Source: an uncultured Solirubrobacteraceae bacterium
GTDB lineage: Bacteria > Actinomycetota > Thermoleophilia > Solirubrobacterales > Solirubrobacteraceae
Length of the DNA stretch: 64,000 nt
Reading direction: 5' to 3'
Assembly: GCA_964588985.1 (NCBI GenBank)
Contig: CAZPQW010000001.1
Coordinates: 64,001 to 128,000, forward strand
The notes below the pieces were generated by a model that worked only from the letters and a program-made list of their open reading frames with translations, ran no database searches and was not told the origin of the DNA. The first letter of the stretch is position 1, and every line of letters starts with the position of its first letter. The translations under genes were made by a program, and so were the position numbers. Shown piece after piece: positions 42,727-57,170 of the stretch.

Positions 42727-45081
42727 TTAGCCCGGCACCCCCTGCACCAAAGAAAGCACCGGCGCGAACAGATCCCCCCGCTCGGCCACCCGCCTCAGCA
42801 CATCCCCCGCCTCGAACACTAGCCGCGCCGGGTCACCCTCCTCCAGCGCCTCCCGCACCTCGACCCACTCAAGCGGCGTCGAGACCGTGGGCCGTTCGCC
42901 CGCGCGCAGCGAATACACGCATACGGTGGTCTTCCTGCGGTCGTTCTGGCTCCAGTCGATCAGCACCTTGCCCTCGCGCTTGGCCTTGGTCATGCGCGAC
43001 ACCACGAGGTCGGGCTGCTCCTGCTCGAGTAGCTCCGCCACCGCCTTCGCGAACGGCTTGGTGTGCTCGAACGTGACGTCGGGGTGGTTGAGCGGCACGT
43101 ACACCTGCAGCCCCTTCGAGCCTGACGTCTTGACGAAGCTCTGCAGCCCTAGCCCCTCGAACATGCCGTGCAGCTGCAGCGCCACGCGGCAGCACTCGAT
43201 CGCGGTCGCCGGCGGGCCCGGGTCGAGGTCGAACACGAGCGCGGTCGGCCGCTCGATCGAGTCCGCCAGCGCGAGCGGCACGTGCAGCTCGAGCGCCGCG
43301 AGGTTCGCGAGCCACACGAGCGTCGGCAGGTCGTCCGCGAGCGTGTAGTCGATCGGCTTCTCGCGGCTCGCGATCGTCGCCGTGCGCACCCACTCCGGTC
43401 GATGCGCGGGCGCGTGCTTCTGGAAGAACGACTTGCCCTCCACGCCATCGGGCCATCTGGTCACGGTCAGCGCCCGGCCTTGCAGGTGCGCGAGTAGCAC
43501 CGGTGCGATCTCCCGATAAAAATCGATCAAATCGCCCTTGGTGAACCCCGTCTTCGGGTAGAGCACCTTGTCGAGGTTCGTCAGCTTCAGCTCGCGCCCC
43601 TCGACCGTCGGGCGCGCCGGATCCTCGCGCACCACGTCCCCCGCGTCCTTGTCGTCGCGAAGCCCCACGTACACAGGGTGACGCAGGCTCCCCGCCTTGG
43701 TCCAGTGCGCGAACTCCACCTCCACCACCAGGCGCGGCTCGCAGAACACCGCCTCGCGCGGCGGCGTCTCGCCCGTGGTGAACGGCGAGTCCTCGCGCGC
43801 GAGCGGCCCGAGCAGCGCGGACAGGCGCTCCAGCTCGCGCTCGTCGAAACCGCTGCCAACGCGCCCCGCGTAGCGCAGCACGCCGCCCGGCTCGTGCACG
43901 CCCAGCAGCAGCGCGCCGACCGTCTCCCTCCGCTTGCCCTTCCCCGGCATCCATCCGCCCACCACCAGCTCCTGGCGCTCGAAGCTCTTCACCTTCACCC
44001 ACTCGCCCGAGCGCGACCCCGGGCGGTAGGGGGAGTCCAGGCGCTTGGCCACAACCCCCTCCAAACCCTGCTCCGCGCTCGCCGCGAGCAGCGCAGCCCC
44101 TCCGCCGACGGTGTGCTCCGGCGTCTGCCAGTGCGGGCCGTTCAGCCCCATCGCCTCCAGCAGGTCGCGCCGCGCCTCATACGGCTGGCCCATCAGCGAG
44201 TGCCCGTCCATCCACAGCACGTCGAAGATCACGTACGTCACCGGCGTGTCCTTCGCCTGCCGGCGTGCCTGCGCCCGCGTGGGCGTGTGCATCCGCCCCT
44301 GCAGCGCCGCGAAGCTCGGACGCCCCTCCTCGTCGAACGCCACGATCTCGCCGTCGAGGACCACGCTGTGCGAACCGAGCGCGTCGCCCAGACGGAAGAG
44401 CTCCGGGTAGCTGTCGGTTATGTCTTTTAGGGAGCGGCTTTCCAGCCGCAACTCGCCCGGTTGGCTGTATGCGAGAGCGCGCACCCCGTCCCACTTGATC
44501 TCGTAACCCCAGCGGTCGTCGTCGTGGGGGATCTCACCGGAGCGCGCGAGCATCGGCGCGATCTTGCTCGGCATCGGCTCGCGGGTGGGGTCCGCGGGCG
44601 GGTCCATGCGGTGGATCATCCAGTTCTTCGGCTGCTCGTCCTTGTCGATCGGGAAGAGCGCGTAGCGGGCGCTCTCGTGCTGTCCGTGCAGCGCCACCTC
44701 CACCTTGCGCGGTTCCCACTTGAGCGTCTCGTACGTGCCGCTGTCCCAGATCGAGATCGTCCCCGCGCCGTACTGCCCCGCGGGGATCTCCGCTTCGAAG
44801 TCGAGGTACTCCAGCGGATGGTCCTCCACCGCCACCGCGAGGTGGTTTTCCTTCGGCGCGCGCGGCAGCCCCTTGGGGATCGCCCACGACGCGAGCGCGC
44901 CGTCGCGCTCCAGGCGCAGGTCCCAGTGCAGCCGCGTCGCGTGGTGCTCGTGGATCACGAACCGCGGCAGACCGTCGCCGCTCTGGCGCTCGCCGGGCTC
45001 GGGCTCGGGTGTGGCGCTGAAGTCGCGTTTGCCGCGGTAGTCCTTCAGGCTGGCCTTCCGCTGGGTGCGCTTCGGTGCCGT
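42727..45081 (-). CDS. ligD: DNA ligase D (phosphoesterase-ligase-polymerase)
   Basis: YRGKRDF, HHATRLHWDLRLE, YEIKWDG, EGVVAK, LTNLDKVLYP, FDLDPG, KTSGSKG; start codon unusual. Confidence 0.93.
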   Translation of the reverse strand, partial: TAPKRTQRKASLKDYRGKRDFSATPEPEPGERQSGDGLPRFVIHEHHATRLHWDLRLERDGALASWAIPKGLPRAPKENHLAVAVEDHPLEYLDFEAEIPAGQYGAGTISIWDSGTYETLKWEPRKVEVALHGQHESARYALFPIDKDEQPKNWMIHRMDPPADPTREPMPSKIAPMLARSGEIPHDDDRWGYEIKWDGVRALAYSQPGELRLESRSLKDITDSYPELFRLGDALGSHSVVLDGEIVAFDEEGRPSFAALQGRMHTPTRAQARRQAKDTPVTYVIFDVLWMDGHSLMGQPYEARRDLLEAMGLNGPHWQTPEHTVGGGAALLAASAEQGLEGVVAKRLDSPYRPGSRSGEWVKVKSFERQELVVGGWMPGKGKRRETVGALLLGVHEPGGVLRYAGRVGSGFDERELERLSALLGPLAREDSPFTTGETPPREAVFCEPRLVVEVEFAHWTKAGSLRHPVYVGLRDDKDAGDVVREDPARPTVEGRELKLTNLDKVLYPKTGFTKGDLIDFYREIAPVLLAHLQGRALTVTRWPDGVEGKSFFQKHAPAHRPEWVRTATIASREKPIDYTLADDLPTLVWLANLAALELHVPLALADSIERPTALVFDLDPGPPATAIECCRVALQLHGMFEGLGLQSFVKTSGSKGLQVYVPLNHPDVTFEHTKPFAKAVAELLEQEQPDLVVSRMTKAKREGKVLIDWSQNDRRKTTVCVYSLRAGERPTVSTPLEWVEVREALEEGDPARLVFEAGDVLRRVAERGDLFAPVLSLVQGVPG

Positions 45082-45884: not shown

Positions 45885-46784
45885 CTACCGCTTGGCGGCC
45901 GGTTTCTTCGCCGCGGGTTTCTTCGCGGCGGCGGCCGGCTTTTTCGCCGGTGCTTTCTTGCCCGCCGCTTTGCGTCCCTTGCCCGCGCCCGTGCCTTCGC
46001 GTGCGCGCACCGCGTCGAGGCTCGCCTTCAGCGCGCTCATCAGGTCGGGCGCCGGCGCGGCCACCTCTTCGGGCGTGGGCTGCACCGCGATCTGCTTGCC
46101 CTGCGCCTTGCGCTCGATCAGCGCGAGCACGTCCGCGCGGTAGGTGTCGCTGTACTTGTCCGGTTCGAAGTCGCCCGCGAGCGAGTCCACGAGCTGCTTC
46201 GCGATGTCCAGCTCGCGCTCGGTCGTCTTGACGTCCTTGGCATCCGCGATCTCGTCCACGCGGTCCGCGGGCAGGATTTCGTCGGCGAAGATCATCGTCG
46301 CCATCCCCAGCGCGTCGCCCATCGGGCGGATCGCCACGAGCTGCTCCTTCGAGCGGATCACCACGCGCGCGATCGCCACCTTGCCCGTCTCGCGCATCGC
46401 CTCGAGCAGCAGGCGGTAGGGCTTCAGGCCGCCGGGGCCGGGCGCGAGGTAGTAGGGGTGGTCGTAGAACACGGGGTCGATCTGCGACAGCTCGACGAAG
46501 TCCTCGATCTCGATCGTCTTCGTCTTCTTCGGCTGCAGCGTCTCCAGCTCGCCCGGCTCGATCACCACGTAGCGGTCGGGGGCGATCTCATAGCCCTTGA
46601 CGATCTCCGCGTACGGGACCTCCTCGCCGGTCGTCGGGTCGACGCGCTTCTGCGCCACGCGCACGCCCGTCTTGCCCCAAAGCTGGTGGAAGCGCACCGT
46701 CTTGCGGTCGATCGCGCTGTACAGCTTCACGGGTACGGTGACCATGCCGAAGCTGATCGCTCCGGTCCACATCGCGCGGGGCAT
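45885..46784 (-). CDS. ku: Ku protein
   Basis: MPRAMWTGAISFGMVTVPVKLY; DLMSALKASL; basic tail. Confidence 0.95.
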   Translation of the reverse strand: MPRAMWTGAISFGMVTVPVKLYSAIDRKTVRFHQLWGKTGVRVAQKRVDPTTGEEVPYAEIVKGYEIAPDRYVVIEPGELETLQPKKTKTIEIEDFVELSQIDPVFYDHPYYLAPGPGGLKPYRLLLEAMRETGKVAIARVVIRSKEQLVAIRPMGDALGMATMIFADEILPADRVDEIADAKDVKTTERELDIAKQLVDSLAGDFEPDKYSDTYRADVLALIERKAQGKQIAVQPTPEEVAAPAPDLMSALKASLDAVRAREGTGAGKGRKAAGKKAPAKKPAAAAKKPAAKKPAAKR

Positions 46785-53885: not shown

Positions 53886-53957
53886 TGGGCGCGGCGGGTT
53901 TCGAACCTGCGACCTCTCGCGTGTGAAGCGAGCGCTCTCCCACTGAGCTACGCGCCC
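53886..53957 (-). tRNA. tRNA-Val (anticodon CAC)
   Basis: GGGCGCG/CGCGCCC acceptor stem, CTCGC-TT CAC AC-GCGAG, GTTCGAAAC. Confidence 0.95.
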
Positions 53958-54730: not shown

Positions 54731-55330
54731 CTACGTGCCGAGCAGGTCCACCACGAACACGAGCGGCGCGTTCGCCGGGATCGTGGGAGGCGAGCCTTTG
54801 ACCCCGTAGGCGAGTGCGGACGGGATGATCAGCTCGCGCCGTCCGCCCACCTTCATGCCCGCGACGCCCTGGTCCCAGCCGGGGATGACCTGGCCCTTGC
54901 CGAGCGCGAAGCTGAACGGTTCGCTGCGCTTCCAAGAGGCGTCGAACTCCTTGCCGCCTTTGTAGAGCACGCCGACGTAGTTGACGGTCACCGTCTGGCC
55001 CGCCTTGGCTTCGGCTCCGGTGCCCACGATCAGGTCTTTGGTCACCAGCTTGGTCGGCGCCGGTCCCGTCGGCACCGTCACCTTCGGTTCTTTGGACAGC
55101 GGGCCGCTCGTCGGCGTCTTCGCGGTCGCCGTCTTCGGCGTTTCGCTCGATTTCGCGTTGGCGCCTTCGGTGGACTTGATCAGCGCGTTGTCCGCGCTGT
55201 TCTCGTTGCCGACTGTGATCGTGCTCGAGCCGCCGGAGCTGCCGCAGCCGGCCAGCAGGGCCGTCGTGCCGAAGGTCGCGAGCACGAGGCCGGCGCGGGA
55301 GTGGAGGGAAAAGCCGTTGAAGTAGGTCAC
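54731..55330 (-). CDS. FKBP-type peptidyl-prolyl isomerase lipoprotein
   Basis: LAGC lipobox; VNYVG, FDASW, VIPGWDQG, IPSALAYG. Confidence 0.93.
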   Translation of the reverse strand: MTYFNGFSLHSRAGLVLATFGTTALLAGCGSSGGSSTITVGNENSADNALIKSTEGANAKSSETPKTATAKTPTSGPLSKEPKVTVPTGPAPTKLVTKDLIVGTGAEAKAGQTVTVNYVGVLYKGGKEFDASWKRSEPFSFALGKGQVIPGWDQGVAGMKVGGRRELIIPSALAYGVKGSPPTIPANAPLVFVVDLLGT

Positions 55331-55679: not shown

Positions 55680-57170
55680 CTACGTACAGCGCTGGAAGAT
55701 CAGCCAGGAGCGGTTGGCGCCCTTCTCGGTGAAGCCGGGAGGAACGCTGACCGCCTGATGGGGGTCACGCGGGTCGAGCACGTAGTCGTCTTCGACCTCA
55801 TTGCTCGCCGGGTCGACGTAGATGCCGGTTGCGATGTGCCCCGTCTGCAGGCTCACGACACTGCGAGGGCTCGTCTTCAGATAGAGCGCCAGCAGTGGGA
55901 CGGGCGCGTGGTTGGGAACACCCACGGGCCCGCAGCGCAGGTCGATCGCGTGGTTGCGCACCAGCGCCACGAGGTCGCCTTCGATGCTCTGCTGGCGCGC
56001 CAGTTCGCCGAATTGGCGATCGGCGCTGCGGTACTGCGAGGGGGTGTACGCGATCAGCGCGAGCAGCACGATCGCGCCCTCCGCCATCCACCAGGGGCGC
56101 CGGGAGTCGCCCCGTGGCAGGCGTGTCCACCCGAACGCCCCCGCGCCGCAGAACACGCACAGGATGGCCGCCGCGAGAAACGCGTAGCGCGTGTTGATCG
56201 GCAGCCCCACGGTGGCGAACGCCGCGAACACCAGCACCGCGAGCAGGCCCGCCGCGGCCCCCAGGAGGGCACGGCTGCGCAGCCAGAGCAGGGAGAGAGC
56301 GCCGCCGATCGCCGCCCCGACGAGCACCGGTGGTCTGAGGATCTCGCCGATCCGCCTCGGGATGTACTCCGGCACGTTCGCGATCCCGGTGTAGCGGTGC
56401 AGCGTTTCGACGGTGTGCTGGGTGTTCGTCAGCGACCAGAAGGGGTGGCCCGTGATGGCGAGGTCGCTGAGGATCCACACGAGCGGTGCGGCCAGCGCAA
56501 GCAGTGTGAGCCTCGAACGAGCGACCTCTCGCGTGTGAAGCGAGCGCTCTCTCGCAGAGCTACGCGACCACCTCGGCACAAGGTCCATCAGATACAGCCA
56601 GTACAGCCCGGAGAATGCCCACGCCTCCGGGCGCAGCAGTCCGGCGAGCGCGAGCAGCGCGAGCACCGGCAGGCCGGACCCAGCCCTCCGGGCCGTGTGC
56701 CCGCGCCGGCGGGTCTCGACCAGCAGCGCGCCGAGCACCATCAGTAGGTAGGGGATGTCCACGTAGGCGCGCACGCCGTAGGAGAGCACCGGCACGCGCG
56801 TGAGGAAGATCAACGCGGCGAGCGCGCCGGCGGCTCGCCCGAACCACTCCGCGCCGAGCCGGTAGATCACCCAGCCGCACGCGGACAGCGCGAGGAAGCC
56901 GAGCGCGATCGTGACGTCGGCCACGGCGTGCGGCCCGAGCGGGGACAGCACGACCCCCAGCAGCTCCACCAGCGGGTGAGGGGTGGGGGCGATCGGCACG
57001 TCATAGGCGGGCACGGATCCGCGCGAGAGCTGCCCGCCCCACGCGAGCGCGTAGAGGGTGTCGTAGTTGACGAAGCCGACCCCCGAGATCACGCGCAGCA
57101 GCACCGCGCCCGCGGCGATCGTCAGCGGAGTGCCGAGAGTCCGCGCAAGTGCCTTCGTCGAGGTGCTCAT
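55680..57170 (-). CDS. Multi-pass membrane protein, GT-C glycosyltransferase-like
   Basis: NYDTLY, PTPHPL, LLRPEAW, many TMs; contains a tRNA-derived segment. Confidence 0.7.
   Translation of the reverse strand: MSTSTKALARTLGTPLTIAAGAVLLRVISGVGFVNYDTLYALAWGGQLSRGSVPAYDVPIAPTPHPLVELLGVVLSPLGPHAVADVTIALGFLALSACGWVIYRLGAEWFGRAAGALAALIFLTRVPVLSYGVRAYVDIPYLLMVLGALLVETRRRGHTARRAGSGLPVLALLALAGLLRPEAWAFSGLYWLYLMDLVPRWSRSSARERSLHTREVARSRLTLLALAAPLVWILSDLAITGHPFWSLTNTQHTVETLHRYTGIANVPEYIPRRIGEILRPPVLVGAAIGGALSLLWLRSRALLGAAAGLLAVLVFAAFATVGLPINTRYAFLAAAILCVFCGAGAFGWTRLPRGDSRRPWWMAEGAIVLLALIAYTPSQYRSADRQFGELARQQSIEGDLVALVRNHAIDLRCGPVGVPNHAPVPLLALYLKTSPRSVVSLQTGHIATGIYVDPASNEVEDDYVLDPRDPHQAVSVPPGFTEKGANRSWLIFQRCT
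56513..56569 (-). repeat. Partial tRNA-Val copy embedded in CDS
   Basis: 51/57 ungapped identity to 53901..53957 with a 31-bp perfect core. Confidence 0.9.

Follow-up and report, generated by a model that had tools for sequence, protein, structure and literature searches.

A tRNA-Val(CAC)-derived segment read in frame in the variable loop of a GT-C-type membrane protein gene of Solirubrobacteraceae

How does part of a tRNA gene come to be translated within the gene of a membrane protein, and what has happened to it since? The question is raised by a locus in a 64,000-nucleotide (nt) stretch of DNA from an uncultured Solirubrobacteraceae bacterium (hereafter the window), which corresponds to positions 64001-128000 of contig 1 in an assembly of 3,414,776 bases and 48 contigs; coordinates without a prefix are positions in the window. 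A first-pass annotation of this DNA had noticed that a segment of an open reading frame (ORF) resembles tRNA-Val(CAC), and had proposed that tRNA sequence was captured there as coding DNA. With a probability of roughly 0.7, we consider this insert to be a captured tRNA-gene fragment that serves as coding filler, a tolerated repair scar which has been moved between species.

The insert and its host protein

Three tRNA genes were called in the window by ARAGORN, including that of tRNA-Val(CAC) (Table 1). The insert can be aligned with this gene without gaps and on the same strand, tRNA position 1 falling at 56569 and position 60 at 56510. Over 56513-56569 (tRNA positions 1-57), 51 of 57 nucleotides are identical, and a core of 31 nt, which covers the 3' side of the D stem, the whole anticodon arm and the variable loop of the tRNA, shows no difference at all. 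When tRNA-Val was compared with the whole assembly by BLAST, the insert was recovered at 93.5% identity over 46 nt (E 7e-13) as the sole copy of this kind; the remaining non-self matches were 23 nt or shorter. The match is far beyond chance, and it is unique in the genome. The tRNA gene lies downstream of the insert at a distance of 2612 bases (56569 minus 53957). The identity, core length, orientation and distance reported in the first-pass annotation were thus all reproduced.

In the frame of the gene the insert is read as SRSSARERSLHTREVARS, residues 202-219 (about 202-220) of the membrane protein, in the hydrophilic loop of the annotated coding sequence where it had been placed. The tRNA has no stop codon in this frame, as had also been stated, and two of its three forward frames are open. 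Translated in the frame of the gene, the tRNA itself would give W-ARSSVGERSLHTREVAGSK, and one of the orthologues described below (L049) keeps nearly all of it, reading KWAYSSVGERSLHTREVAGSK. The D stem (GCTC/GAGC) and the entire anticodon arm are intact in the window copy. The T stem and the acceptor stem lack their 3' halves, and the earlier description of both pairings as lost holds.

The homology begins right after a Trp codon (P-x-W) that is present in orthologues without the insert too. The T of this TGG codon stands where an A precedes the tRNA gene, and the tRNA leader was therefore not copied. At the 5' junction, the sole visible microhomology is GG, which occurs in the Trp codon as well as at tRNA positions 1-2; sequence divergence prevents a reading of the 3' junction. 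Just 3' of the insert there is a 27-nt deletion, later than the capture, which is common to the window copy and the orthologue L087.

Fourteen distinct orthologues from Solirubrobacteraceae species, the window copy (L001) being one of them, carry the insert at the same codon and in the same frame, and several of the records concerned are titled whole chromosomes. The alignment with the tRNA, which starts at position 1 and ends in the T loop near position 61, is ungapped in each of the 14 copies. One of the genes (L152) is frameshifted outside the insert, its genome being 57% complete. Two further orthologues, L038 and L054, retain just the first few codons. The alignment of orthologues, which had been suggested as a check, thus revealed 13 other genes with the tRNA-derived insert and a highly variable loop. 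The insert is collinear with the tRNA and in frame, 14 species have inherited it, and its loop can take about 0-100 extra residues; these features bear out the proposal of tRNA sequence captured as coding DNA.

The host gene has orthologues in 35 of 41 related genomes and in 80 named metagenome-assembled genome (MAG) records, and its open frame continues upstream to 57941. The protein showed no NCBIfam match above the cut-off and no match by sequence in the PDB, and the score of Pfam PMT_2 (18.9 bits) was under the cut-off of 26.1. A model calculated with AlphaFold2 (AF2) from 41 orthologues had a mean predicted local distance difference test score (pLDDT) of 91.7 and a predicted template modelling score (pTM) of 0.91. 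In a Foldseek search with this model, the top match was ArnT (5f15; E 7e-7; template modelling scores, TM, 0.58/0.54), and further matches were PglB (3rce_A, E 7e-6), ALG12, the STT3 subunits of oligosaccharyltransferase (OST), AftD and Pmt4. All 16 matches at E <= 0.001 were GT-C enzymes. The host protein is thus predicted to have a GT-C glycosyltransferase fold and to be glycosyltransferase-like. Residues N35-Y36-D37, which follow helix 1, are invariant in 41 orthologues, and D37 may be a counterpart of the acidic residue that GT-C enzymes conserve in the first extracytoplasmic loop (the catalytic Asp in ArnT or PglB).

In the AF2 model, a loop of residues 195-211 connects helices 182-194 and 212-240. 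The pLDDT is 51 for residues 201-210, and residues 206-209 are the only region of the model below 50. From the position of the insert over this loop, the product of the tRNA-derived codons would be a basic, disordered loop together with the two initial turns of the membrane helix that follows. Measured from the RPEAW motif to the W..SD motif, the loop has 27-138 residues in 109 orthologues and can hardly be aligned; the site appears to accept almost anything, and the insert would mark this loop of a GT-C enzyme as structurally free. Counting of helices gave conflicting answers on the side of the membrane at which the loop lies. The positive-inside rule suggests that it may be cytoplasmic (7 Arg and 1 His against 2 Glu in residues ~198-220).

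Two observations on other forms of the loop are worth noting. Tandem peptide repeats (such as GPKR(E/G)HAA.P or GGSHP units) have enlarged the loop of L020, L025, L019 and L026 to 80-138 residues, and the loop therefore grows by local duplication as well. In the public rhizosphere run X10, a 633-nt contig from a co-occurring relative has flanks about 90% identical to the window and 73 other letters in place of 58 at the insert (56504-56563). Alternative loop alleles therefore coexist in one rhizosphere sample.

Table 1. Coordinates of the insert, its neighbours and the related loci mentioned in the text. Positions without a prefix are those of the window.
Feature	Position	Strand	Basis or remark
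tRNA-Val-derived insert (tRNA positions 1-60)	56510-56569	-	ungapped alignment, BLAST, translation
31-nt core (tRNA positions 19-49)	56521-56551	-	identical to tRNA
tRNA-Val(CAC), source sequence	53886-53957	-	ARAGORN
Host gene, 496-residue polytopic membrane protein, predicted GT-C fold	55680-57170	-	ORF list; start codon predicted
Low-confidence hypervariable loop, codons for residues ~195-212	56534-56587	-	AF2, ortholog alignment
FKBP-type peptidyl-prolyl isomerase gene, between host and tRNA genes	54731-55330	-	Pfam FKBP_C, E 3e-33
LigD polymerase domain	42853-43590	-	298 bits
Ku	46206-46754	-	175 bits
Interrupted tRNA-Val 5' part	L055:9511-9552		
Interrupted tRNA-Val 5' part	L070:9057-9096		
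Interrupted tRNA-Val 5' part	L057:10292-10331		
Interrupted tRNA-Val 5' part	L058:8762-8803		
Interrupted tRNA-Val 5' part	L061:8174-8213		
Interrupted tRNA-Val 5' part	L073:8453-8492		
Interrupted tRNA-Val 5' part	L074:8670-8709		
Interrupted tRNA-Val 5' part	L081:8993-9032		
IS66-family transposase in inserted DNA	L061:8539-10032		Pfam, E 5e-37
tRNA piece, window genome (example)	G000:C1:40544-40585		
tRNA piece, window genome (example)	G000:C5:122935-122980		
tRNA piece, window genome (example)	G000:C13:77693-77734		
tRNA piece, window genome (example)	G000:C16:69108-69153		
tRNA piece, window genome (example)	G000:C28:7466-7512		
'tRNA-???', 97 nt	G000:C27:31243-31339		ARAGORN
Resident tRNA-Val of G098	G098:C85:5645-5716		variant T arm
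tRNA-Val 3' piece (28-72)	G098:C130:3102-3146		identical to common type
tRNA-Val 3' piece (28-72)	G098:C130:5258-5302		identical to common type
tRNA-Val copy, intact to ~position 45	L146 (G101:C6, locus ~1701)	-	not called by ARAGORN

Drift and exchange between species

The 14 copies have departed from the tRNA to very different degrees. Over tRNA positions 1-61, they differ from it at 6 (L049), 9 (L127, L087 and L001), 10 (L148 and L032), 12 (L119), 13 (L031), 14 (L002), 17 (L152), 18 (L035), 21 (L048) and 22 positions (L033 and L047). Summed over 13 bearers, 55, 51 and 78 differences fall on codon positions 1, 2 and 3, respectively. This near-flat spread indicates little protein-level constraint on the insert. 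The mean identity of all pairs is 0.695 for the insert, 0.753 for the genes and 0.646 for third positions at conserved residues. In sister pairs the insert shows no excess conservation over synonymous sites (0.85 versus 0.85 for L047-L048 and 0.85 versus 0.81 for L031-L032). L049 and L087 keep the 31-nt core without change, as does L127 from position 19 onwards.

In a sample of 401 genomes of the genus, which includes three flagged as unpublished, a pattern scan found the insert in the gene in 12. This number is a lower bound, since a match requires the Trp codon as well as two tRNA blocks; decayed copies are missed, and so is L087, which has no Trp codon. The pattern matched 102 of the 401 genomes, mostly by chance in G+C-rich DNA or at a true tRNA-Val preceded by T; nine of 14 pattern loci that were checked are tRNA genes. 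In Smith-Waterman alignments against the tRNA with 200 shuffles, 13 of 105 distinct orthologues stood clearly above the rest (scores 26-99). L036 and L086 were reached by none of the 200 shuffles, yet their scores of 20-21 are at background level, and the other rows gave z of about 1-4. Local alignment detected no tRNA remnant in the non-bearing loops among the 105 orthologues (z about 1), and loops of the PAWMRARIG type are not shown to be decayed inserts.

Maximum-likelihood trees were built without the loop columns. The presence of the insert changes 8 times on the tree of 109 rows, at least 7 of these changes being forced by well-supported branches, and 10 times on the tree of 92 rows. When 13 bearers were forced into one clade, the log-likelihood difference was 452.7 and the P value of the approximately unbiased test (p-AU) was 2.9e-5. 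The bearers are not monophyletic. The plainest case of exchange is L049. It groups with L061, L065 and L071 at 99% support, and its DNA is 86-96% identical to theirs on both sides of the loop. Over a patch of about 100 nt, L049 has the flank and the insert of other bearers, and L061, L065 and L071 have the WPAW-type loop of the wider clade. The loop patch of L049 is clearly a short recombinational import.

Origin of the insert and alternative explanations

We propose that a copy of about 61 nt of tRNA-Val(CAC), from position 1 to the T loop, would have been captured once, at a break or by a replication error, in an ancestor within this Solirubrobacteraceae genus. The capture site would have been the permissive variable loop of a GT-C-type membrane glycosyltransferase gene, and either the tRNA itself or its gene, which lies a few kb downstream, may have been the template. 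The captured piece would have fallen in an open frame and would have been translated since as about 20 mostly basic residues. It would have no tRNA-like function, would drift near the neutral rate and would have been shortened or overwritten in many lineages, while the loop patch that bears it was probably moved between species by homologous recombination. A single capture event, a templated-repair mechanism and neutrality are what we infer.

As in templated insertions generally, a collinear donor, tRNA-Val, is present elsewhere in the same genome. It lies downstream of the host gene in 45 of the 80 named loci, on the same strand in all 45, and its 5' part is present in 8 more; 9 of the 27 loci that lack tRNA-Val end early at contig ends. 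The tRNA is identical at 72/72 positions in most of the genus. The genome encodes Ku, LigD polymerase domains (298 and 223 bits) and one RVT_1 reverse transcriptase, which are observations of presence only. We infer that the insert is a templated capture made during repair or replication. The proximity of the tRNA gene favours a DNA template (a chance neighbour would be expected for about 1 in 48 tRNA genes), and the start at the mature 5' end favours run-off copying of RNA (a chance of a few in 60); both figures are estimates and not computed tests.

It is worth noting two further observations on this subject. One LigD polymerase domain and Ku are encoded 10-13 kb from the insert, and a second LigD polymerase domain is found on contig 8. 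Second copies of the loop DNA were also sought in the own genomes of three other loop variants, L010 (G003), L017 (G008) and L007 (G005), and none was convincing; the closest candidate, 37 nt long and 92% identical, falls in a GCG-rich stretch of low complexity. There is therefore no evidence that the loop is a general sink of templated insertions.

Several facts weigh against the proposed history. No microhomology or donor-side evidence fixes the mechanism, and the exact start of the homology at the mature 5' end of the tRNA would be a coincidence if the template was DNA. The non-bearing loops show no remnant. The bearers were also ascertained with a bias: for four of them, the search pattern demanded GCTC and GAGCGCTC, and the invariance of those columns therefore proves nothing. 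Some copies appear, from their sequences, to be more alike than neutral drift since speciation permits. The inserts of L049 and L127 agree at 54/61 positions against a synonymous identity of 0.62 (P 4e-6), those of L049 and L148 at 51/61 against 0.60 (P 7e-5), those of L127 and L148 at 50/61 against 0.59 (P 9e-5), and those of the sisters L001 and L087 at 54/61 against 0.70 (P 6e-4). In addition, a rare Leu codon, CTT, which comes from the tRNA, is kept in 11 of 14 copies in a genome of 68% G+C. L148 is the most divergent gene of the set; its flanks are 62-77% identical to all orthologues, and no donor signature was found around its insert. With such divergent flanks and a well-kept insert, either a very short imported patch or a maintaining force is needed. 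Very short patch transfer and repeated gene conversion would each explain the excess likeness.

In the second of these explanations, the invariant tRNA-Val gene, at a distance of 2-5 kb, would keep the insert tRNA-like in some lineages through repeated ectopic gene conversion. Copies with a long perfect match would be refreshed, and those which lose the match would decay for good. The constancy, closeness and common orientation of the tRNA gene agree with this idea, as do the divergence of 6-22 per 61 positions among copies that have derived changes in common, the good preservation of the centre of the insert with both edges worst kept, the identity of inserts above synonymous identity in distant species, and the 51/61 positions kept by L148 in a gene with flanks that no relative matches at more than 77% identity. 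On the other hand, the homology amounts to about 60 nt with a core of at most 31 nt, and homology of ~30-60 nt is near the lower limit for RecA-type exchange. The inserts of G098 and G415 lack the variants of their own tRNAs (in the T stem and at A5, respectively), although both variants are near the edges and that of G098 may be recent. Conversion would leave the foreign flanks of L049 unexplained, and the close sister pairs show no excess conservation. We regard ectopic conversion as improbable on balance. The broader idea that the insert and tRNA-Val form a live pair, in which either the tRNA gene repeatedly overwrites the copy by short-tract conversion or selection keeps the D arm and anticodon arm, for example as a decoy for an agent that cuts tRNA-Val or inserts into it, seems rather unlikely too. 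If it were true, a protein loop would be hostage to the sequence of an RNA gene in some lineages and would decay freely in others.

The scatter of the bearers on the gene tree, with 10 changes on 92 rows and a single clade rejected, and the nearly pristine state of several copies might also be explained by independent, repeated captures at the same loop position. The codon, frame and boundaries are, however, common to all 14 copies, and subsets of copies have changes which are not in the tRNA, as well as flanks, in common. TAC or TAT stands at tRNA positions 6-8 in L049, L127, L148 and L033; CGCTCGCTG is common to L033, L047 and L048; TC at positions 50-51 is common to L001 and L087; and the 5' flank reads G(F/L/V)TP.W in 12 of 14 copies. 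These common derived changes disfavour independent captures. Moreover, the flanks of L049 outside the tRNA homology were replaced too, and the insert of G098 has the T-stem bases of the common tRNA and not the variant of G098's own tRNA. Repeated capture is therefore very unlikely, and a single capture followed by exchange is preferred.

The first-pass annotation had offered another reading, in which the insert acts in the mRNA as a mimic of a tRNA. A functional mimic, at the level of mRNA or DNA, would be kept by nucleotide-level selection, and it might be a target or decoy for tRNA-modifying enzymes, anticodon nucleases, valyl-tRNA synthetase (ValRS) or the element with tRNA-Val as its insertion site. 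The window genome (G000), L087, L049 and L127 do have an intact D stem and anticodon arm, and columns 10-13 and 21-28 are invariant in all 15 rows, although partly because the search pattern demanded them; the unvarying D stem is uninformative, and the pattern in part imposed it as well. Certain distant pairs are more alike than synonymous sites, and tRNA-Val itself is interrupted after position 40 in 8 related loci, within the stretch that the best copies keep. The sign of selection on pairing is nevertheless missing. In the test of covariation over 11 cloverleaf pairs and 15 rows, 89.1% of cells were paired against 89.4% in shuffles, with one change on both sides of a pair against 1.1 expected. 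The anticodon stem is broken on the 3' side, without compensation, in six copies (L002, L031, L032, L033, L047 and L048), and differences from the tRNA occur at all codon positions. The homology stops at about position 61, and a complete cloverleaf is lacking with the 3' strands of the T stem and acceptor stem. On the insert, the Rfam tRNA model (RF00005) scored 21.8 bits (E 0.044), under the gathering score of 29, ARAGORN called no tRNA, and the local RNA fold (96 nt) was no stabler than that of shuffles (z +0.93). About 90% of the examined orthologues are without the insert, and none of 105 is interrupted at it. The mimic proposed earlier thus finds no support, and a functional tRNA mimic of any kind is very unlikely.

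Equally unlikely is an attachment-site (att) scar, left by an integrase-type or insertion sequence (IS)-type element that targets tRNA-Val, or a secondary att site of such an element. tRNA-Val is a hot spot in the genus: in 8 loci foreign DNA comes after its 5' part (leader and positions 1-40), G310, G098, G001 and G415 contain scattered 3' pieces (positions 27-29 to 72), and the window genome itself has many 3' tRNA fragments. The scars seen here, however, consist of positions 1-40 with the native leader or of positions ~28-72, and the insert consists of positions 1 to ~61 without the leader. Both sides of the gene are unbroken, and neither an element nor an integrase nor a target duplication lies between them or beside them. 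The 2.6 kb up to the tRNA are the conserved 3' half of the gene and the FKBP gene, which is syntenic in non-bearers too.

The weakest alternative, an assembly chimera or a collapsed repeat in a MAG, of which the first-pass annotation had warned, is refuted, even though the assembly has 48 contigs and short-read graphs do break in the shared 31-nt core: the insert recurs in 13 other species-level genomes from separate assemblies, including records titled whole chromosomes, with graded divergence and an intact frame, and Logan contigs from public rhizosphere runs bridge each of its junctions without differences. One of these contigs covers 56350-56549 (X1, record 1), and three cover 56522-56750 (X1, record 6; X9, record 29; X10, record 13); X1 is possibly the source sample of the genome, and X9 and X10 are not flagged as source. 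The whole insert is not covered by any one Logan contig, since the core that it has in common with the tRNA gene is where assemblies break.

The search for tRNA-Val pieces gave some further observations on the tRNA gene as a target. In the 8 interrupted loci, the native leader and positions 1-40/42 of tRNA-Val are followed by foreign DNA, which begins alike in six of them (L055, L070, L057, L058, L061 and L074). An intact tRNA-Val with a similar leader follows 1-1.5 kb further in L055 and L070, and the inserted DNA of L061 encodes an IS66-family transposase. These sequences suggest an element which has the anticodon-stem region of tRNA-Val as its target and carries a 5' part that replaces the original one.

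The window genome contains 17 non-tRNA matches to pieces of its own tRNAs, mostly 3' parts (~27-36 to the end) at 95-100% identity. Such 3' pieces are the usual scar of integrative elements at tRNA genes. In G098 the resident tRNA-Val has a variant T arm with 6 differences, and two 3' pieces identical to the common type lie on a different contig, which suggests that an integrated element may have swapped the 3' half of this tRNA. ARAGORN also called a tRNA with a four-base anticodon (ggag) in the window genome, which may be a false call or an odd tRNA, and the tRNA-Val copy of L146 is unrelated to the tRNA beyond about position 45.

Significance and known systems

The insert offers a clean natural case of RNA-gene sequence turned into protein in bacteria, in which donor, target, frame and history can be read across species. 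A captured fragment would mean that templated ectopic capture, which is well known from the repair of breaks in eukaryotes, leaves fixed scars in bacterial genes. The insert can also be regarded as a built-in tag which reveals that uncultured soil species exchange very short patches of their genes. The donor tRNA does not vary, and the copies therefore act as molecular clocks whose starting sequence is known; the operation of short ectopic conversion in bacteria and the neutral substitution spectrum at high G+C thereby become testable on public genomes. In a full-text literature search, no description of a bacterial gene with a translated piece of a tRNA gene was found, which is no proof of absence. 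As far as the evidence goes, the insert is not a new functional system.

[quoted passage not shown] RPEs are described as integrated in frame 44 times in genes of R. conorii (PMC10969869). The first-pass annotation had drawn this comparison, and it holds for the outcome; it fails for the kind of sequence, which is a single-copy fragment of a host gene and no dispersed repeat. RPEs are palindromic, mobile and present in many copies, whereas the insert derives from a tRNA of the host, is found once in 3.41 Mb besides the tRNA gene, has no terminal repeats or strong fold, and spreads solely within the loop of the host gene.

Like the att scars of integrative elements, the insert is a partial tRNA copy a few kb from the intact gene and on the same strand. 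Att scars are, however, 3' parts, or the leader with positions 1-40, at the borders of elements, and the insert lies within a housekeeping-type membrane gene.

In eukaryotes, sequence derived from RNA genes has become protein-coding through exonised pieces of nuclear mitochondrial and plastid DNA (NUMTs and NUPTs) and through tRNA-derived short interspersed nuclear elements (SINEs) in coding exons. NUPTs as a source of genes are treated in PMC11110229. These cases involve organelle transfer, retroposition and splicing, unlike the insert, which entered a bacterial chromosome without introns and directly in frame.

[quoted passage not shown] They too are short ectopic copies in the same orientation as a nearby donor that is itself unchanged. 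Templated insertions from MMBIR are reported in PMC8421209, and a bacterial group-II-intron-like reverse transcriptase is described as acting in microhomology-mediated end joining (bioRxiv 10.1101/2022.03.14.484287). In contrast to such reports, which concern eukaryotic or experimental breaks, the insert is ancient, fixed, in frame, translated and kept in many species, and its donor is a tRNA gene. By this comparison, the mechanism that produced it would most resemble that of templated insertions at repaired breaks.

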